From Candidatus Microgenomatus sp. (GTDB lineage Bacteria; Patescibacteriota; Minisyncoccia; UBA6257; GWB1-50-10): a DNA stretch of 64,000 nt. A program made the position numbers and the translations under genes. Shown here piece after piece: positions 4,105-53,400 of the stretch (positions are counted from its first letter, which is position 1; each line of letters starts with the position of its first letter). The stretch lies in assembly GCA_020724805.1 (NCBI GenBank), contig DYGI01000001.1:389152-453151 (forward strand), in the 5' to 3' direction. Below the pieces are notes generated by a model. That model was not told the DNA's origin and did not search any database. It saw nothing but the letters and a program-made list of their open reading frames with translations.

Positions 4105-4246
4105 GCCCTTAATTATAGGCTGAAGGTACTGAGGTTTTACTTCGTCGTTCCTCCTCAGTACCTTCTTCGCTATTTATCCATCAGTGCCATAGGCCCTGAT
4201 GAACGAAGTGAAGAAGGGCTGCGGGGGCTGAACGATGTTCGAACCT
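4105..4246 (+). repeat. island-boundary element copy 1 (13-bp hairpin plus tRNA-Gln 3'-end-like core at 4216-4245)
   Basis: About 100 nt of homology, with indels, to 53260-53400 in inverse orientation. Reverse complement of the core reads GGTTCGAACATCGTTCAGCCCCCGCAGCCC, resembling a tRNA-Gln T-loop and acceptor 3' end. Confidence 0.7.
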
Positions 4247-4252
4247 ACTTTA

Positions 4253-4912
4253 TCACGTCGTTATGGTTCCGAACAGTGATTCTGAAGTCGCGATTTGAGC
4301 GAGAATGCTAGTGTGCAGTTTTTTCACAGCGCTCACTATACGATGATCGCCAACGTATTGTTTAACTTGAGCTCTCACTTTATGGATCAAATCGTTCGCG
4401 ATTCCGAAACGACTCCACATATTCAATTCATCGTCTAGCGTGAGAGTTTCCGGGTTTTTATAAAGATTTGCAATGCACTCATAGTATTCGCGCATAACCG
4501 CTTTAGGTTCACCGTTTGGGGTTTCAATATAGGTGAGTGAATCACGTGCTATTTGCATATCGAAGTTTCTTACGTCCTCGATATCTTGCAGTATCTTTAC
4601 CGCAGTTCTTTTTATCCACATTTCTTCTCCCTGGTCACGCATTCCTTCATCTATACCTGGTATTGTCTCACTGATAGCGCTCGCTTGAACATCATCGTAG
4701 AGAAGATGTGAAAACCATCCCTTGCGAAAATCGCTGGTTCTGAATGAAAGATCTGTTTGGTATCCCTTTGGGTGTGTGGCGAGTCTGTTAATTTTTGTCA
4801 CATATCGGCTATCTGGGTATATTGAGCCGGAAATGTACGCGTCAGCATCTTTGACGGAGAGTAGATCCTTAACATCAAGAGCAAACCTTATATGTGATCC
4901 TTGGAGCGCCAT
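4253..4912 (-). CDS. hypothetical protein (219 aa), island cargo
   Basis: Long ORF in AT-rich DNA; bracketed within 8-9 nt at each end by the direct repeats at 4216-4245 and 4921-4948. No recognisable motif. Confidence 0.5.
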   Translation of the reverse strand: MALQGSHIRFALDVKDLLSVKDADAYISGSIYPDSRYVTKINRLATHPKGYQTDLSFRTSDFRKGWFSHLLYDDVQASAISETIPGIDEGMRDQGEEMWIKRTAVKILQDIEDVRNFDMQIARDSLTYIETPNGEPKAVMREYYECIANLYKNPETLTLDDELNMWSRFGIANDLIHKVRAQVKQYVGDHRIVSAVKKLHTSILAQIATSESLFGTITT

Positions 4913-4920
4913 AAACTTTT

Positions 4921-4948
4921 TGCTGCGGGGCTTAAACGACGTTAGAAC
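4921..4948 (+). repeat. island-boundary element copy 2 (partial, core only)
   Basis: tgctgcggggcttaaacgacgttagaac, about 75% identical to 4216-4245. Its reverse complement ends CCCCGCAGCA, like the tRNA-Gln(CTG) 3' end. Confidence 0.6.
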
Positions 4949-5021
4949 TTATTTCCTTTCGACAAGTACCATTCATTAATAAAAATGGGTTCTACCCAAT
5001 TAGGGACATTGATTCTAATTA

Positions 5022-5819: not shown

Positions 5820-5972
5820 GGCTGGGAGGCTTGGGAGCGAACAACGCTCGTATTCACTCGCGTTCACAAAACCCTCGGTTTTGTGTCCACTATCGTTCAA
5901 TCCGACACGGAAGGGACACAAAAGGTTTCCCTTCCGACCCATCCCTCACTTAAATCGTCAGATTTAAGTCCA

Positions 5973-6002
5973 GATTCATGGCTTCAAAGGCCGCTGTCCT
6001 AT
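5973..6002. repeat. tRNA-Gln fragment (anticodon-arm region) duplicate
   Basis: agattcatggcttcaaaggccgctgtcctat matches tRNA positions 6068-6100 with one mismatch. Confidence 0.7.
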
Positions 6003-6046
6003 AGACAAGGGAGTGAGGAAATGGAAAGCGTCACTCCTGCGCACCG

Positions 6047-6117
6047 CTGGGAGGCTTGGGATCGAACCAAGATTCACGGCTTCAAAGGCCGCTGTCCTAC
6101 CATTAGACGACCTCCCA
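6047..6117 (-). tRNA. tRNA-Gln (anticodon TTG)
   Basis: Cloverleaf: acceptor TGGGAGG/CCTCCCA, D-arm GTCT/GGAC, anticodon loop CTTTGAA, T-arm CTTGG-TTCGATC-CCAAG, discriminator G. U1-A72 is typical of bacterial tRNA-Gln. Confidence 0.85.
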
Positions 6118-12333: not shown

Positions 12334-13277
12334 CCGCACGCGTATCGGCACTACTACTTGCGGCGCTCATTATGGTTTCTGCGGCGCTCACGCGAACCGG
12401 CGGAGAGGGAGCGTTACCGGTGGAACGCGCTCCCGAGGCAAGCGCGGAAGCGCAAACTCCTCCTTTGTACTATTCGTTTCAGGCGAATGCGTTTTCCGCG
12501 GGCACAGGAGCCGGACGCGGACCGTCCCGCGACTGGAATGTACTCGACCCTCGCGTGGATGCGGCGGCAGCGCTTGTGTATTCGCTGGACGATGAAGTGA
12601 TACTCCTCGGTGCGCGCACGTATGCGCGTTGGCCCATGGCATCACTCACCAAACTTCTCACCTCGGTAGTGGTCGCGGAAAATATCGGGTACCACAAACG
12701 CGTGCCCATGACGGAGACCGCGATAGCGACGGAAGGAAACGGCGTGATGTTCAATCCCAACGAAGAATTTGCCGCACGCGATCTCGCGCGGATAATGATA
12801 ATGGCCTCGTCGAACGACGCCGCGGTCGCTTTCGAAGAGCATGTGGGAGGAAGGGAAGAGTTTTTGAAATTGCTCCGTGGCGCGGCGACAAAACTCGGCA
12901 TGGACCAGACCACACTTTCGGATGCCGCAGGTCTTTCCGCCGCCAATGAATCGTCCGCGAGCGACCTTATGAAGCTTGTGAAATATCTTGCCTCTTCGCG
13001 TCCGGAGATACTCGAATGGACGCGCCACGCGACATTCATCTTTCAACCCACCAATGACCCCACGAGCCGCACCGTGGCGAACATCGTACCGTTCGCCGAC
13101 GACCCCCGGTTCCTTGGCGGAAAAACGGGTACGCTCCCCGAAGCGCGGGAGAATTTTGCGGGACTATTTTCACTCGGCGGACGTCGGGTGGTGGTGGTTA
13201 TTCTCGGAAGTCGCGACCGGGTGCGCGAGGTGAATGAACTTCTTGATTGGACCATGCGTGCATACCACTTCAATTGA
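12330..13277 (+). CDS. D-alanyl-D-alanine carboxypeptidase (S11, PBP5-like)
   Basis: Signal peptide; SxxK (ASLTK), SxN (SSND), KTG (KTGT) motifs. Confidence 0.8.
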   Translation: MTARVSALLLAALIMVSAALTRTGGEGALPVERAPEASAEAQTPPLYYSFQANAFSAGTGAGRGPSRDWNVLDPRVDAAAALVYSLDDEVILLGARTYARWPMASLTKLLTSVVVAENIGYHKRVPMTETAIATEGNGVMFNPNEEFAARDLARIMIMASSNDAAVAFEEHVGGREEFLKLLRGAATKLGMDQTTLSDAAGLSAANESSASDLMKLVKYLASSRPEILEWTRHATFIFQPTNDPTSRTVANIVPFADDPRFLGGKTGTLPEARENFAGLFSLGGRRVVVVILGSRDRVREVNELLDWTMRAYHFN

Positions 13278-13283
13278 GGATAT

Positions 13284-13410
13284 GGATCCCGTTAGAAGCA
13301 AAAAACAACATTTCACCGTACTATGATAACTTTCTATATTTATTCTGTAGGTCGAGCAAGGCCGCATGCTACGGGTGTGCGCGTGGGCACACCCTGCTTC
13401 TAACGGGATG
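13284..13410 (+). promoter_or_regulatory. inverted-repeat leader element A (15-bp arms ATCCCGTTAGAAGCA / TGCTTCTAACGGGAT) enclosing the mraY start codon
   Basis: Fills the entire dacA-mraY intergenic region. The right arm contains the ATG at 13408. Homologous to 17074-17195, with a compensatory arm substitution between the two copies. Confidence 0.6.
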
Positions 13411-14454
13411 GAAATTTTCGAAGCGATTCGCATTCTCATACTCTTCGCGTTCGCATTCGTGGTGGCGCTTCTTCTCACGCCTTTTGTGCTTCATCGTCTT
13501 GTGGCATGGAATGTGCGCAAACGGAACATCCGAGACGCTACCTCCGCGCCCGTTTTCCACAGTTTGCATAAGGATAAGGGGAACACGCCGACCATGGGCG
13601 GCATCATCATTTGGGCTACCGTGCTTGGGCTTGCGGCGCTCTTTTTTCTCGCGAATCAGTTTTTTAACGGGTTCGCATCATATTTCGATTTTGTGAATCG
13701 CGCGGAAACCTATCTTCCGCTTGCCGCACTCGCGTTCGCGGCGGTGGTAGGTTTGGTGGACGACCTTTTCGGAATTCTCGGCAAAGGGCCGCACGGAGGC
13801 GGACTCACCGTGCCCCAGAAGCTCGTGCTCTACACCGCCGTGTCCGCCATCGGTGCGTGGTGGTTCTTCGTGCGCCTCGGGTGGGACACCATTTTTGTGC
13901 CGTTCGTTGGCCACGTGGTGGTCGGATGGTGGTATGTTCCCATTTTCATGTTCATCATCATCGCGTCGGCATTCTCCACGAACGAAACGGACGGTTTGGA
14001 CGGACTTGCAGCGGGAGTACTCTTTTTCGCATTCGGTGCGTTTGCGGTAGTTTCTTTCATTCTCCATCGCTACGACCTTGCGGCGATGAACGCGGTTATT
14101 TTGGGAGCGCTCCTCGCGTTTCTTTGGTTCAATATTTATCCCGCGAGGTTTTTTATGGGCGATACCGGGAGTATGGCGCTCGGGATAACCTTGGGGGTTA
14201 TGGCGATGCTCACCAACACGGTGTTCTTCCTCCCGTTTTTCGGTGCGATACTGGTTTTTGAATCGTTTTCGGTCATCATACAGCTCATTTCCAAGAAAAT
14301 TCGAGGGAAAAAGATATTTCTCTCGACTCCCATTCACCATCACTTCGAAGCGTTAGGATGGCCGGAAACGCAGGTCACCATGCGCTTTTGGTTCGTTTCA
14401 GCGGTGGCAACGATTCTTGGATTGGTGCTTTTTTTCCTCGCGCGATTCATTTGA
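13408..14454 (+). CDS. mraY: phospho-N-acetylmuramoyl-pentapeptide transferase
   Basis: 10 TM helices; NETDGLDGLA and FMGDTGS motifs. Confidence 0.9.
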   Translation: MEIFEAIRILILFAFAFVVALLLTPFVLHRLVAWNVRKRNIRDATSAPVFHSLHKDKGNTPTMGGIIIWATVLGLAALFFLANQFFNGFASYFDFVNRAETYLPLAALAFAAVVGLVDDLFGILGKGPHGGGLTVPQKLVLYTAVSAIGAWWFFVRLGWDTIFVPFVGHVVVGWWYVPIFMFIIIASAFSTNETDGLDGLAAGVLFFAFGAFAVVSFILHRYDLAAMNAVILGALLAFLWFNIYPARFFMGDTGSMALGITLGVMAMLTNTVFFLPFFGAILVFESFSVIIQLISKKIRGKKIFLSTPIHHHFEALGWPETQVTMRFWFVSAVATILGLVLFFLARFI

Positions 14455-14473: not shown

Positions 14474-15946
14474 ATGACGACGCTCATTCAGGGCGGGATG
14501 GTGTACGACGGTACCGGCGGCACGCCGTATGAGGCGGACGTGTTGTTGCACGGAAAAACCATCACGCGCATCGGTCGACGCCTTTCGGTCAGGGCAAATC
14601 ACATCATCGAAGCGCGCGGCGGGCTCGTAACTCCGGGATTTGTGGATATCGCAAGTTACGCCGACCATTATCGAGCGCTCTTTGCCGATCCCGCAGGCAC
14701 CGAGTCATTGATTCGCGGTATCACCTCGCTTGTGGTGGGCCACGGCGGCGCTTCCATAGCGCCACTTTTTGCATGGAGCATTCTTCCGGAACGTTGGTGG
14801 GGGAATACCATCTCTCCCGCCGCCCACGCGGCCATGGTAAGCGAAGTATTTTCGTTGCTCCAAGGAAGAATAGGAGTGAATGTGGGAACACTCGTAGGGC
14901 ACGCGACGGTGCGCGAGGGAATTACCCACGGAACGCCGCGCGATCTCACCGAGCGTGAACTCGAACTTCTTTCCTACACTCTTCGCCATGCGCTTAAGGA
15001 AGGCGCACTCGGCATCTCCGTGAACTTGGAATATCCACGTACCACGCAAGTGCCGCGAAAAGAATTGATGCGCGTGGCGCATATTGCCGAGGAATTTCAT
15101 GCGGTTCTCTCGCTTCGACTTCGTTCGCGCACCGATCATGTGAAAGAGTCCCTCGCGGAAGTGCTTGCGCTTTCGGATGCGACGGAGGTAAATCTTCTTC
15201 TCACCGACGTTGAGCCTCACTCGACCGAAGAGGCGGCATACCGTGCGCTCATGAACCAAGTTACTCGCGCGTCAGCGGATCACCATGTGCACTTTACCAC
15301 CTCGGGAAGCGGTGTTGCCGCGTTCCCTCTTCCACTGCTTCTCCCGTCACATTGGCACGAGAAGGAATGGGATACCATGCGGGCGCGCCTCACCGACCGC
15401 GCGATGCGTGAGGAACTTCGTTCGCATCTTGTACGCTATCGCGACATTCCGATGTATGTGGCCGCCGTGGCGGACCCTTCGCTTAAACTTTTTGAAGGCA
15501 CGCCTTTCGCAAAGTGGTCTCTCCATGAGCACGTGCCTTTCGAAGAAGCGCTCATGCGACTCATGGAAGTTACCGGATTTCGGGCGGTGCTTGCGATGAA
15601 CGTGGGAGAGCCGGAGCTTGCTCGTGTCTTCGCGGCTCACGATCGCGCATTGATCGCTTCCGGTGAAGCGGCGGCGCCGGCTCTCGAATCTTCCGCGCAT
15701 TTAAAACTGCTCGCATTCAAAGATGGAGGTACATTCCCGCTCGAGCAACGCATCGCGAAAATGACGGGTGCGCCTGCAAAAAAGTTGGGCCTCTCCCGCC
15801 GCGGCATCCTTAAAGAAGGGTACTATGCCGACGTGCTCGTCATTGAAAAAGGAACGGTTCGCGAGACATTCGTGAATGGCGTTCGGGCCATTGCCGCCGG
15901 CGCGCCGACCGGCGAGCGGAGCGGGACGATACTTACGCGCGCATGA
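14474..15946 (+). CDS. amidohydrolase-superfamily protein, D-aminoacylase-like, with degenerate metal-binding motif
   Basis: N-terminal GGxVxDGTG...VxPGFVD block, but the HxH is replaced by ASYADH. C-terminal ...GYYADVLVIE...FVNG... is typical of N-acyl-D-amino-acid deacylases. Occupies the murD position. Confidence 0.6.
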   Translation: MTTLIQGGMVYDGTGGTPYEADVLLHGKTITRIGRRLSVRANHIIEARGGLVTPGFVDIASYADHYRALFADPAGTESLIRGITSLVVGHGGASIAPLFAWSILPERWWGNTISPAAHAAMVSEVFSLLQGRIGVNVGTLVGHATVREGITHGTPRDLTERELELLSYTLRHALKEGALGISVNLEYPRTTQVPRKELMRVAHIAEEFHAVLSLRLRSRTDHVKESLAEVLALSDATEVNLLLTDVEPHSTEEAAYRALMNQVTRASADHHVHFTTSGSGVAAFPLPLLLPSHWHEKEWDTMRARLTDRAMREELRSHLVRYRDIPMYVAAVADPSLKLFEGTPFAKWSLHEHVPFEEALMRLMEVTGFRAVLAMNVGEPELARVFAAHDRALIASGEAAAPALESSAHLKLLAFKDGGTFPLEQRIAKMTGAPAKKLGLSRRGILKEGYYADVLVIEKGTVRETFVNGVRAIAAGAPTGERSGTILTRA

Positions 15947-17073
15947 CGTCCGGAGGACTTTTTCGTACGCGTCCTCGCGGACTTCCAGATTTTGCGTTCG
16001 TCGGCGCGGTCGCCGCGCTCGTTATTTTCGGTCTCGTGATGCTCGCATCCGCCTCTTCCGACCTTGCACAAAAGCAGTATGGCGAAAGCTATTATCTTCT
16101 TCTCCACCAAATCACGAACGGCCTTTCGGTTGGCATCGTGGGTTTTCTTGCGGGCGCTTTCATTTACTATCGGACATGGGATAAGTTCTCTGTTTATATT
16201 CTCGCGGCGGGACTTATCGCGCTCCTTTTGATTTTCACGCCACTCGGAATTGCGCAGAAAGGAGGGGAGCGATGGGTGAATCTCGGTGCGTTCTCGTTCC
16301 AACCAGGTGAATTGGCGAAGCTCGCGCTCATCATTTATCTCGCGAGCTGGCTTGCGCGCACGCCGCTTCGCGCGAAGAATTTCATGGAAGGATTCATGCC
16401 ATTCCTTGTGCTCGTCGGCGCGGTCGTGGGGCTACTCCTCGCGCAACCCGCCACATCCACCGCCATCATTATCGTGGTGGGCGCGCTTACGTTGTATTTT
16501 ATGGGCGGCGCACGTATCCGATTTTTTGCACTCGCTGCGCTTCTTGTGGTCGTCGGATTCTCGCTTCTTTTCGCAGTGGGAGGGAAAGATGATTACCGCG
16601 TGCGGCGCATTATGACGTTTTTTAATCAAGAGGCAACCGACCCGCTGGATGAGGGATATCATATCGATCAGACGAAGTTCGCCATCGGCGCGGGAGGACT
16701 TACAGGTGTTGGCTTCGGCCAGTCCGTGACAAAACTTTATTCGCTTCCGGAGCGCATCGGCGATTCCATTTTTGCCATCATCGGCGAAGAATTCGGTTTC
16801 GTAGGATCCGTCGCGCTCATCGCGCTATTCGCGGTGTACGTGATTCGTGGATTCGCCATCGCGAAGCGGGCGCCGGATTCGTTTGGGCGTCTTACGACCA
16901 TCGGTTTCGTCACCATCATCGGATTCCAGGCGTTCGTGAACATCGCCGCTATCTCGGGACTCGTTCCGCTCACCGGCGTGCCGCTTCCGTTCATTTCGTA
17001 CGGCGGCACCGCCCTCGCGGTTTTTTTGACGATGTCGGGTATCGTCGTTAACATTTCAAGACATTCCCGATGA
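15943..17073 (+). CDS. ftsW: SEDS-family peptidoglycan glycosyltransferase FtsW/RodA
   Basis: 10 TM helices, conserved PGELAK and GGTA motifs, dcw context. Confidence 0.85.
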   Translation: MTSGGLFRTRPRGLPDFAFVGAVAALVIFGLVMLASASSDLAQKQYGESYYLLLHQITNGLSVGIVGFLAGAFIYYRTWDKFSVYILAAGLIALLLIFTPLGIAQKGGERWVNLGAFSFQPGELAKLALIIYLASWLARTPLRAKNFMEGFMPFLVLVGAVVGLLLAQPATSTAIIIVVGALTLYFMGGARIRFFALAALLVVVGFSLLFAVGGKDDYRVRRIMTFFNQEATDPLDEGYHIDQTKFAIGAGGLTGVGFGQSVTKLYSLPERIGDSIFAIIGEEFGFVGSVALIALFAVYVIRGFAIAKRAPDSFGRLTTIGFVTIIGFQAFVNIAAISGLVPLTGVPLPFISYGGTALAVFLTMSGIVVNISRHSR

Positions 17074-17195
17074 ATCCCGTTAGAGGCAACTAAATTACTA
17101 TCCAATGATTTACCGTATCAACAACGCACTATCAAATCAAAAGGTCTCGCGGCACAACTACGGTTGCCTTGTGGCGACCTGCCTCTAACGGGATG
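17074..17195 (+). promoter_or_regulatory. inverted-repeat leader element B (arms ATCCCGTTAGAGGCA / TGCCTCTAACGGGAT) enclosing the murG start codon
   Basis: Fills the ftsW-murG intergenic region. Right arm contains the ATG at 17193. Shares internal motifs with element A (ttYaccgta, ctat, ggtc, ctacgg). Confidence 0.6.
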
Positions 17196-18317
17196 AACAC
17201 CTTTCGCATCGCACTTACGGGAGGAGGTACCGGCGGACATGTATTTCCGCTCGCCGCGGTTGCCGATGAATTGCTGCGCATGGGGCAGGGGACCGTGGAA
17301 CTTCGCTACTACGGGCCTACGAGCGTATGGAATGAGATGCTCGCGGCGCGCGACATTCGCACTTCGCATATCGCGGGCGCAAAGCTCCGCCGCTATGCGT
17401 CGTTGCAAAATATTATCGACATCCCAAAGTTTTTTATCGGCCTACTCGAGGCGTTCGTAAAGCTCTATTTCTGGATGCCGGACGCGGTGTTTTCAAAAGG
17501 AGGTCCGGGCGCGTTGCCGGTTGTGTGCGCGGCCGCATGGTATCGAATTCCCATCGTGGTCCATGAATCGGATGCAGTGCCGGGACTCACGAACCGCATC
17601 TCGGCAAAATTCGCGAAAAAGATTTGTATAGCGTGGCGAAACGCTGCGGCATATTTCCCTGCGCGGAAAGTGATGGTCACCGGAAACCCGATACGTGCCG
17701 CGCTTGCGACTACCATGTTGGAGCGGCGTGCGGCAAAATCGCAACTCGGCGCGGACCCGGATACGCCTCTCCTCCTTGCGCTTGGAGGTTCGCAGGGCGC
17801 AAAAATATTGAACGACTTTGTGGACGCGGCGCTCCCGATGCTTCTTGCGCTCTGCCAGGTGTATCACCAGACCGGGAAGGGGAACGTGCCTTCCGTGAGC
17901 GACCATATGGGCGCTCGTCCCGCCGCACCTTCGCGGTATACCGCGCGGGATTTTATGGATGAACGGGAGCTTGCCACTGCGCTTCGTGCCGCCGACCTCG
18001 TGCTCACGCGGGCAGGTGCAGGCGCGATCTATGAATGTGCGGCTGCGGGCGTTCCCGCCATTCTTGTACCGCTCGCAAATGGCGCGAACGATCACCAAAG
18101 AGCGAATGCGGCCGAGTATGTCGCTTCGGGCGCCGCATTGGTCATTGAAGAAAACAATCTTACTCCGAACCTCGTGGCGGGAGAAATAAAAAAACTTCTC
18201 GCGGGCGGCGAGAAGTTGAAAATGATGGGGGAGAGGGCGCGCGCATTTTTTAAACCAAGCGCCGCAGAGGAAATCGCACGCGCAATCGTTACGGCGACCG
18301 GTGCTCAAATCAAATAA
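17193..18317 (+). CDS. murG: undecaprenyldiphospho-muramoylpentapeptide beta-N-acetylglucosaminyltransferase
   Basis: N-terminal GGGTGGHVFP motif, GT28 family architecture. Confidence 0.9.
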   Translation: MNTFRIALTGGGTGGHVFPLAAVADELLRMGQGTVELRYYGPTSVWNEMLAARDIRTSHIAGAKLRRYASLQNIIDIPKFFIGLLEAFVKLYFWMPDAVFSKGGPGALPVVCAAAWYRIPIVVHESDAVPGLTNRISAKFAKKICIAWRNAAAYFPARKVMVTGNPIRAALATTMLERRAAKSQLGADPDTPLLLALGGSQGAKILNDFVDAALPMLLALCQVYHQTGKGNVPSVSDHMGARPAAPSRYTARDFMDERELATALRAADLVLTRAGAGAIYECAAAGVPAILVPLANGANDHQRANAAEYVASGAALVIEENNLTPNLVAGEIKKLLAGGEKLKMMGERARAFFKPSAAEEIARAIVTATGAQIK

Positions 18318-53124: not shown

Positions 53125-53259
53125 CTGAAACCGCTGCGTAAATGAACGGCATGGCTAGAACTTGTCTAATCCGGCAACTTCTCCCTCCTTGCCGTCCCCT
53201 TCCGCTCCCCTATACTGGACGCGTAGTCAATTGAGGAATATCTTCCTCGGCATACAAAA

Positions 53260-53400
53260 GGTTCGAACATCGTTCAGGCCCCGCAGCCCTTCTTCGCTTC
53301 GCTCATCAGGGCCTATGGCATCTCTTGAGCGAAGAAGGCACTGAGGAATCCTGAGTATGAACGAAGGACGACGAAGTGATAAAATTCGCTTGTGAGTCAC
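53260..53400 (-). repeat. island-boundary element copy 3 (tRNA-Gln 3'-end-like core 53260-53292 plus conserved hairpins)
   Basis: GGTTCGAACATCGTTCAGGCCCCGCAGCCC then ccttcttcgc...gaagaagg hairpin. About 93% identical over 64 nt to the reverse complement of 4190-4246. Confidence 0.7.

Follow-up and report, generated by a model that had tools for sequence, protein, structure and literature searches.

The window analysed here is a stretch of 64,000 nucleotides (nt) of contig DYGI01000001.1 from Candidatus Microgenomatus sp. (assembly GCA_020724805.1; contig positions 389,152–453,151), and it contains a dcw cluster in which Pfam identifies genes for an S11 DD-carboxypeptidase (dacA-like), MraY, FtsW and MurG. 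Two palindromic elements, of 121 and 118 nt and 3.8 kb apart, fill the dacA/mraY and ftsW/murG junctions (elements 1 and 2, respectively), and each is bracketed by a direct repeat (ATGGA in the first case, ATGAA in the second) whose right-hand copy opens the following gene. We describe these elements as candidate members of a mobile family that inserts at start codons, and consider how genes displaced in this way might still be translated. The features of the two copies, including an upstream open reading frame (uORF1) and a second, short open reading frame (sORF2) in each, are as follows.

13275–13277: stop codon TGA of the dacA-like gene, 4 nt ahead of the left ATGGA of element 1
13282–13286 (+): left ATGGA of element 1, the presumed target-site duplication, read directly in the sequence
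13287–13407 (+): body of element 1, 121 nt, TCCCGTTAGA...TCTAACGGG (nhmmer E 2.9e-12)
13286–13300 (+): left arm of element 1, ATCCCGTTAGAAGCA, 15 nt including the flanking A/T
13395–13409: right arm of element 1, the exact reverse complement of ATCCCGTTAGAAGCA, ending with the AT of the mraY ATG (13408–13410)
13373–13394 (+): subterminal hairpin of element 1, GGGTGTGC-GCGTGG-GCACACCC, from the fold
13282–13326 (+): uORF1 of element 1, from the left ATG, 14 codons, stop TGA at 13324–13326
13323–13403 (+): sORF2 of element 1, ATG at 13323–13325, 26 codons, stop TAA at 13401–13403
13408–13412 (+): right ATGGA of element 1, its ATG (13408–13410) being the real start of mraY
17070–17074 (+): left ATGAA of element 2, its TGA (17071–17073) being the ftsW stop
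17075–17192 (+): body of element 2, 118 nt (nhmmer E 2.1e-13)
17074–17088: left arm of element 2, ATCCCGTTAGAGGCA
17180–17194: right arm of element 2, the exact reverse complement of the left
17162–17179 (+): subterminal hairpin of element 2, GGTTGCC-TTGT-GGCGACC, from the fold
17070–17093 (+): uORF1 of element 2, from the left ATG, 7 codons, stop TAA at 17091–17093
17105–17188 (+): sORF2 of element 2, ATG at 17105–17107, 27 codons, stop TAA at 17186–17188
17193–17197 (+): right ATGAA of element 2, its ATG (17193–17195) being the murG start

The two copies share one plan. In both, a G+C-rich hairpin adjoins the right arm on its 5′ side; in element 1 CTACGG stands before this hairpin and the right arm after it, an arrangement that serves as the polarity marker of the subfamily. 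Neither the hairpins nor the flanking direct repeats figured in the original prediction. The ATG of sORF2 in element 1 overlaps the stop of uORF1 as ATGA, and the frame then runs across the hairpin and the right arm to a TAA lying 4 nt ahead of the mraY ATG. In element 2, 11 nt separate the uORF1 stop from the sORF2 ATG, and the TAA of sORF2 again lies 4 nt before the start codon, here that of murG. The two gene starts agree with those of relatives: MraY proteins begin at a methionine equivalent to the codon at 13408, and the N-terminus of MurG, MNTFRIALTGGGTGGH, aligns with MKHILLTGGGTGGH. The automatic MraY call (362 residues, JGI record) starts instead at the ATG at 13366, inside element 1, so that its N-terminal extension of 14 spurious residues (MLRVCAWAHPASNG, ending ...PASNGM; window positions 13366–13407) is an annotation artefact.

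The arms had drawn attention to the locus in the first place, as the original prediction described perfectly complementary 15-nt arms differing between copies only by A or G on the left, matched by T or C on the right, and with the gene ATG lying within the right arm. All of this was borne out: the arms are exact reverse complements at all four sites, the single matched difference is present, and the ATG is placed in this way for both mraY and murG. Exact arm matches in the window are confined to these four sites, and none of 100 shuffles reached the number of matches observed when up to three mismatches were allowed; neither pattern search nor nhmmer found further copies in the 64 kb beyond these two. 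The RNA folding proposed as a check was carried out, and both elements are far more stable than shuffled sequences, at −50.7 kcal/mol for element 1 (z −5.2) and −45.3 kcal/mol for element 2 (z −5.7).

Relatives of the two copies were sought with an arm pattern, ATCCCGTTAGANGCA, which forces AT after CGGG, scanned over one genome per species (596 Gb), and at least 120 loci were recovered. Chance alone would be expected to give about 4,400 matches to 14 specified bases in 596 Gb, by our own arithmetic, and, among the matches listed, the isolated arms found in Proteobacteria, Bacteroidota and other groups are chance noise. About half of the loci come from Patescibacteria, the candidate phyla radiation (CPR), where the arm belongs to a complete element; the host lineages, again among the matches listed, are Saccharibacteria, Nomura-, Kaiser-, Levy-, Kerfeld-, Moran-, Zambryski-, Harrison-, Azam- and Yanofskybacteria, and Paceibacteria. 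The family statistics given below refer to 79 non-redundant copies, with 64 long copies used for the short open reading frame (sORF) counts and 59 aligned copies for the helix counts.

The family is recognized by its invariant termini, T-CCCGTTAGA ... TCTAACGGG-A, the outer 10 nt of which are identical across the CPR phyla among the matches listed; the base ahead of CCCG is T in 96% of copies, giving T-CCCG ... CGGG-A. The constancy of these 10 nt (TCCCGTTAGA) across phyla points to a putative conserved protein partner. In its usual form the element reads [ATGNN] T-CCCGTTAGAAGC-CGCGGTCGC, followed by 60–90 nt of AT-rich sequence, then GACCGCG-ACCT-GCTTCTAACGGG [ATGNN] and a long open reading frame (ORF). 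The subfamily to which the window copies belong has (C/T)TACGG and a local hairpin before the right arm in place of the inner stem, an architecture also present at five other loci (L008, L022, L036, L104 and L113). Element sizes range from 46 to 166 nt, with a peak at 109–124 nt, and the smallest, deletion derivatives of 46–81 nt, are little more than arms (one of them, at L120, was folded). Lengths equal to 1 modulo 3 occur in 38 of the 79 copies, a mild enrichment by hand count from the size list. The interiors are largely unalignable, with a median identity of 0.57, and conservation is limited to subfamily motifs such as TTYACC, GGTCG and the TACGG hairpin. The short interior motifs that the original prediction saw in both window copies are indeed present, but the overall interior identity of these copies, 0.59, equals this background; since it does, the window copies would be old members of the family, and their closeness to each other may reflect either local hopping or chance.

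Two kinds of departure from this form were seen. A variant with C/G as its outermost pair, C-CCCGTTAGAA...TTCTAACGGG-G, occurs at L058 (7469–7574), L099 (724–827) and L102 (7005–7106); it has GTAC-type flanks rather than ATG and is sometimes nested beside a normal right arm. At L001 (4295–4325), away from any start codon, there is a bare arm palindrome with a one-base spacer (ATCCCGTTAGAGGCA-T-TGCCTCTAACGGGAT), which may be a fully collapsed copy.

Evidence that the elements arrived by insertion comes first from their flanks. A direct repeat of at least 4 nt, most often 5 nt, stands immediately outside TCCCG...CGGG in 53 of the 79 copies. Where a left ATG lies three bases before CCCG, the two nucleotides that follow the left and the right ATG are identical in 45 of 50 copies (for example ATGAG/ATGAG, ATGGA/ATGGA, ATGCG/ATGCG and ATGTA/ATGTA), compared with 19.9 ± 2.5 by permutation and a maximum of 29 in 10,000 permutations. 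As RNA pairing cannot yield direct repeats, these flanks argue for insertion. The putative duplication fits equally well with 5 bp (ATGNN) or with 4 bp (TGNN), the terminal A of the element then rebuilding the ATG; the combination of a left GTGAA with a right ATGAA at L016 and L040 hints at the 4-bp form.

Empty sites give a second line of evidence. At L126 and L131, the nearest FtsW relatives in the metagenomes compared (58–61% FtsW identity), the TGA of ftsW overlaps the ATG of murG (..AGATGAAACAT / ..AAATGAAAAAT), and the left flank of element 2 accordingly reads like an ancestral ATGA overlap of ftsW and murG that was split by the insertion. The dacA/mraY junction is likewise empty elsewhere, with TAA directly before the mraY ATG at L128 and TGA-A-ATG at L129 and L130. 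Among 80 loci of FtsW relatives (646 kb) only one has an element: L135 (43% identity), where an independent copy with other inner arms and ATGAG flanks sits at the ftsW/murG junction. Different AT-rich fillers, either inverted or tandem repeats and about 120 nt long, were seen at ftsW/murG at L127 (5239–5358) and L134 (6096–6213), the former also having such a filler upstream of mraY (about 2730–2866), and apparently other repeat families occupy the same kind of junction in CPR relatives.

Copies within a single genome point the same way. The metagenome-assembled genome JAMCZC01 (L056 and L064) holds four copies at four different genes with interiors 88–95% identical, which from this near-identity would reflect recent spread, and tandem copies share a single ATGAA at L012 and L083. 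For the source species, three assemblies made independently stop within the left arm, 26 nt beyond ftsW, as is usual for assemblies at repeats. In eight copies (among them L021, 7243–7373; L040, 6117–6247; and copies at L056, L064 and L087) the upstream gene now ends at a TAG in the left arm (..TCC CGT TAG), from which it follows that a gene once overlapping the next would have lost its own stop and C-terminal residues to the insertion, which supplied new ones.

We consider it very probable, on this evidence, that the elements are mobile, palindromic and non-autonomous, resemble miniature inverted-repeat transposable elements (MITEs), and insert at start codons. The family has the inverted repeats, target duplication, dispersed copies with empty sites, small size and lack of a transposase gene by which MITEs are recognized; its contents are limited to sORFs of at most 55 codons. 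A related autonomous insertion sequence with the same termini was not found in the loci (1.6 Mb) or in IMG/VR. The MITE-type alternative that the original prediction had mentioned was thus essentially right, given the flanking duplications, empty sites and dispersed copies. That prediction had taken many copies at random sites as the sign of a plain MITE: there are many copies, but nearly all of them are at start codons and share one polarity.

The explanation that it preferred, a riboswitch- or attenuator-like RNA leader that sequesters the AUG and so controls the translation of cell-wall genes, is largely refuted by the same data, and we regard it as very unlikely. The AUG does lie inside a very stable helix, the stem does covary across the family, and in canonical copies a local hairpin (GCAGATCG...CGATCTGC) competes with the long-range stem, all of which speaks for such a leader. 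The pattern of covariation is nevertheless not that of an RNA. When the 59 copies are aligned, complementarity in the outer helix is 98.3%, and its first ten pairs are essentially invariant. Pair 18/142, the position compensated between the two window copies, occurs as A-U 40 times and as G-C 16 times; at pair 19/141, 46 copies have G-C and seven have A-U; and one position of the inner stem switches between GC and AU, 17 to 16. The single-sided arm changes comprise 15 G-U and 10 A-C mismatches, or seven and 10 when the flanking pair is left out. A helix selected in the sense RNA should tolerate G-U but not A-C, and the lack of any preference for G-U over A-C therefore argues that the arms are not selected in this form. 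The compensatory substitution offered as the hallmark of a selected RNA helix is thus real but carries no such signature, and the proposed covariation analysis gave covarying arm pairs together with single-sided changes that lack the RNA-type preference. These changes fit arms kept alike as terminal inverted repeats in DNA, or arms that would merely differ between master copies.

Nor do the genes downstream suggest a regulon. The proteins encoded after the 79 copies match 93 Pfam families, mostly housekeeping, and include RF1, aminoacyl-tRNA synthetases, TopA (topoisomerase I), GyrA, RRF, SSB, trigger factor and the type II secretion system protein F; MurG follows in three copies only, two of them from loci fetched for their ftsW/murG junction. 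A link to cell-wall genes is absent, as the downstream families are unrelated, and the claim of a cis-regulatory RNA coupling these genes to a signal fails also on the unconserved interiors, which offer no ligand-type core, and on Rfam, which gave no match at the gathering threshold or at E values up to 10. The target duplications, the empty sites and the near-identical copies within one genome indicate insertion, and all but one of the 80 related dcw loci are without the element.

Three other identities were tried and rejected. The arm resembles the T-loop and acceptor of a tRNA 3′ end, but the contexts are not tRNAs. An integron attC site was excluded by the order of its motifs, which is GTTAGAR ... 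YTCTAAC on either strand of the element compared with RYYYAAC ... GTTRRRY in attC, and by its position, as the element is found at the 5′ ends of genes and attC at the 3′ ends of cassettes. Bulge-helix-bulge or other intron-like excision was set aside as unlikely, because pairing between the flanks is impossible and a conserved core of ribozyme type is lacking.

The choice of start codons was examined in two ways. Among by-catch copies, which lie in the same loci outside the search pattern, about 18 of 20 adjoin the ATG of an ORF of at least 60 codons, the remainder being tandem copies or the C/G-terminated variant with GTAC flanks. In a census of 1.6 Mb with a polar profile hidden Markov model, 68 of 78 hits face an ATG that opens such an ORF; the other ten comprise four whose ORFs run off the end of the locus, one arm variant, one first copy of a tandem, three partial copies and one reversed copy (L022). 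Polarity, as read from an asymmetric bulge marker, is 64 to 3; both ends and both flanks of the element are symmetrical. The right flank follows ATG-R-R, with purines in 84% and 95% of copies at the two positions, which is stronger than would be expected of second codons generally. A few copies sit at ATAAA, ATTTA or ATTGA rather than at start codons (L094, L054 and L003), and the insertion machinery probably prefers AT-rich pentamers of this kind.

Such exceptional sites are what would be expected of a plain selfish MITE without any expression device, which would have a preference for ATGRR-like, AT-rich pentamers, would survive in the gene-dense CPR genomes only where it regenerates an intact start codon, and would contain an open frame only as a relic, perhaps from the 3′ end of a parental transposase gene; in many insertion sequences the transposase gene ends in the right inverted repeat. 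The behaviour of the arms as inverted repeats at the DNA level suits this explanation equally well. However, neutral intergenic ATGRR sites should then be targets too, whereas the start of a genuine ORF follows at least 90% of copies, and a symmetric element with ATG on both sides should survive in either orientation. Target preference alone accounts for neither the missing neutral intergenic copies nor the polarity. A plain MITE would, moreover, leave the AUGs of essential genes locked in a helix of −45 to −50 kcal/mol. For these reasons, together with the frame usage described below, we think this explanation doubtful.

The frame that leads into the right arm has a distinctive property. The arm reads ...TGC TTC TAA CGGG ATG, with the TAA always 4 nt before the ATG of the gene, and upstream of this TAA its frame stays open for a median of 22 codons, compared with 12–13 codons for the other two. 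Of the three open frames it is the longest in 51 of 79 copies, whereas the frame of the gene itself is the longest in only eight. An ATG-initiated sORF of at least 15 codons ends at the arm TAA in 35 of the 64 long copies; the corresponding numbers are two and five for the other frames and 6.2 ± 2.3 (maximum 13) for shuffled interiors. When ORFs terminated by the TGA within an ATGA start are included, the count is 48 of 79 copies, compared with 21 ± 3.6. This openness, about six times the shuffle rate in interiors of only 0.57 identity, is not expected of a plain MITE, and its persistence in interiors so diverged argues for continuing selection rather than a relic. The peptides are unconserved and the shared nucleotide motifs fall in different frames; the feature retained is the openness of the frame and not a protein. 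In-frame upstream ATGs are present in only 10 of 79 copies.

The routes into this frame differ between copies. We rejected the simple possibility that a uORF from the left, or decoy, ATG always reaches the arm TAA: of 59 copies with an intact decoy ATG, 16 have a single uORF that runs from it across the element to the arm TAA, 23 have a first uORF that stops inside and a second ORF from an internal ATG, and 20 have neither.

These observations suggest a relay by termination and reinitiation. Termination–reinitiation falls steeply with distance, and in E. coli and Haloferax hardly any is left at about 20 nt (PMC10666635); by this rule, splitting an ATGA junction with a hairpin of 118 nt should end the coupling of murG to ftsW and hide the murG AUG. 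After insertion the original start signals and the decoy ATG would remain on the left, with the real start in the right arm. In most copies an sORF would begin at the decoy ATG or at an internal ATG, and a ribosome translating it would unwind the subterminal hairpin and the right arm, melting the arm helix, before terminating at the arm UAA, 4 nt from the gene AUG, and reinitiating there. The chain in element 1 would lead from the dacA stop to uORF1, through the ATGA overlap to sORF2 and on to UAA-CGGG-AUG of mraY; that in element 2 would lead from the ftsW stop and ATGA to uORF1, across the 11-nt gap to sORF2 and on to UAA-CGGG-AUG of murG. Such a relay would account for the tolerance of insertions at the starts of essential genes, for the polarity and for one frame staying open. 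That it keeps the displaced start codons translated is, judged from reading frames and predicted structure, a serious possibility to which we give slightly less than even weight. The reading as a whole, a mobile family that inserts at start codons and carries an sORF relay of this kind, we somewhat favour.

Expression might instead be restored at the level of the transcript, by an outward-facing promoter or by an RNase III site of the type found between the cistrons of phage T7, giving translated mRNA without the left arm and with its AUG exposed; the polarity of the elements would then mirror the direction of the promoter. The AT-rich interiors contain TTAAAAT- or TTATAAT-like motifs whose distance to the right arm varies little, element 1 has a sigma-70-like TTCACC-17-TATATT at 13312–13340, and the right half without the left arm folds weakly (−30 and −23 kcal/mol, z about −2). 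Perfect stems of 14–25 bp are also plausible substrates for RNase III. A promoter scan, on the other hand, gave six hits where 3.8 ± 2.0 are expected for the region, with none in element 2, and the spacing of TTYACC and TAT varies within the subfamily (12, 15 and 17 nt, by eye). The miniature copies of 46–81 nt, which lack an interior, still occupy start codons, and the openness of one particular frame is left unexplained. We therefore regard a transcript-level cassette as improbable.

Ribosomes might also load at the original signals, bypass the looped-out hairpin and use the right AUG, which stands beside the decoy AUG at the foot of the stem. The gap in T4 gene 60 and the byp elements of Magnusiomyces mitochondria set the precedent, these being mobile hairpin inserts of 27–55 nt with matched codons that lie within coding sequences and are hopped during elongation. 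The present elements are likewise mobile hairpins flanked by matched codons, ATGNN standing on either side of a compact hairpin, and in element 1, L023, L050 and L065 an AGGA or AGGT lies 0–2 nt before the decoy ATG, which would place it 5–7 nt from the right AUG if the hairpin were looped out. They differ in standing at the initiation codon, in their length of 46–166 nt and in containing an ORF with its own stop. Most copies have no upstream Shine–Dalgarno motif, the gap of 110–125 nt is more than twice that of known bypass cases, no stop follows directly after the decoy ATG, and neither the sORF in the TAA frame nor the polarity would be explained; we find hairpin skipping hardly credible.

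Several observations weigh against a mobile family equipped with a reinitiation relay, and some of them are those that a plain MITE would predict. An upstream ORF ending at or beside the start codon is missing from 31 of the 79 copies (about 35–40%), and many sORF starts have no Shine–Dalgarno sequence. The decoy ATG decays like neutral sequence and is conserved no more than the two bases that follow it, so that there is no sign of selection on the point of entry to the relay. The unbiased sample of start-codon sites is small (about 20 copies), and as copies are related by descent the counts represent non-independent events. With regard to mobility, the length of the flanking repeat is not fixed, being mostly 5 nt but also 4, 6 and 7 nt, which is unusual for a transposase, and terminal 10 nt that are invariant across CPR phyla are hard to explain for an ordinary MITE. 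No autonomous parent was seen, in that no orphan arm pair encloses a gene in the limited sample of 1.6 Mb of loci, and IMG/VR yielded no full elements and no parent or transposase. A phage-borne element was considered separately and rejected, since the four 16-mer matches in IMG/VR are chance matches inside unrelated sequence.

Among known repeats, the closest in general form are the Correia/NEMIS elements of Neisseria and the ERIC/IRU elements of enterobacteria and Yersinia, which are likewise of about 100–150 bp with inverted repeats, a target duplication and many copies, lack a transposase gene, form a long hairpin in mRNA co-transcribed with their neighbours, and have shorter derivatives; reviews of such elements include PMC2229807 and PMC3184786. 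The Correia and ERIC elements, however, duplicate TA and are intergenic in any orientation and irrespective of start codons, whereas the present family duplicates ATG and about 2 nt at the starts of ORFs with a polarity of 64:3. The frame-specific sORF ending 4 nt before the AUG and the identical 10-nt termini across CPR phyla are further differences from them.

The REP palindromes (repetitive extragenic palindromes), their doublets (REPINs) and the associated RAYT genes offer another comparison, as these too are short extragenic palindromes or hairpin doublets in which arm complementarity is kept at the level of DNA. The G+C-rich subterminal hairpin beside CTAC or TTAC (GTAG or GTAA on the other strand) recalls them, a resemblance confined to this tag. 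REPs are 20–40-nt palindromes with GTAG/CGTC tags that are found mostly 3′ of genes, without target duplication, and that depend on a RAYT gene which they flank; the present family shares none of these habits, having a target duplication and no associated gene that we could see. The Rickettsia palindromic elements are selfish palindromes that occupy essential genes of reduced genomes without being lethal. Our elements are similarly palindromic and tolerated in essential genes, but whereas the Rickettsia elements are translated in frame within coding sequences, the elements described here lie outside them, between the stop of the upstream gene and the next start, and the gene frame is the least open of the three.

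The proposed relay itself has clear relatives in systems of termination–reinitiation, such as ATGA and TGATG overlaps and the mok–hok leader ORF, in which a stop likewise lies a few nucleotides from a start and an ORF is read through a sequestering structure. Coupling of this kind is strongly distance-dependent (PMC10666635; see also PMC6728339). The putative coupling ORF of this family would differ from those systems in being carried on a mobile element and placed at many unrelated genes. No prior description of the arm sequence, of MITEs in CPR bacteria or of repeats at start codons was found in the literature searched, the coverage of which was incomplete.

The window contains some further features apart from this family. 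Between mraY and ftsW, where murD usually sits, an ORF at 14474–15946 (+) encodes a divergent amidohydrolase-family protein without a Mur ligase domain, its best NCBIfam match (E 2.9e-13) being far below the cut-off. A second, unrelated repeat of about 69 nt occurs at 4185–4253 (+) and 53252–53320 (−), the two copies being 91% identical, with a partial third near 4922–4953; it contains a hairpin, ACCTTCTTCGCT...AGCGAAGAAGG, and a T-loop-like GTTCGAACC, the copy at 4185 is intergenic, and Rfam returned only noise. Finally, a 30-nt direct repeat (97%) at 5972–6001 and 6070–6099 has one copy overlapping tRNA-Gln at 6046–6117 (−), and would be a partial tRNA duplication of the kind that an integration scar leaves.

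The choice of start codons as targets, together with strict polarity, has not been described for bacterial MITEs in the literature searched, and if the present interpretation is true it would mean that some mechanism directs the element to initiation regions or else that selection is very strong. In practical terms, gene callers would extend N-termini into the elements, as in the MraY prediction that is 14 codons too long, and assemblies would break there. The broadest reading, which we think somewhat less likely than not, is that a mobile family specialized for start codons, and bringing its own relay, colonizes essential genes throughout the radiation, always facing the same way and leaving them expressed. 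Each CPR genome would then have dozens of essential genes whose translation relies on a leader ORF and reinitiation. A transposon that homes to start codons and carries its coupling device with it would represent a new way in which selfish DNA is tolerated, and would offer a natural part, ready to use, for work on reinitiation in CPR bacteria.

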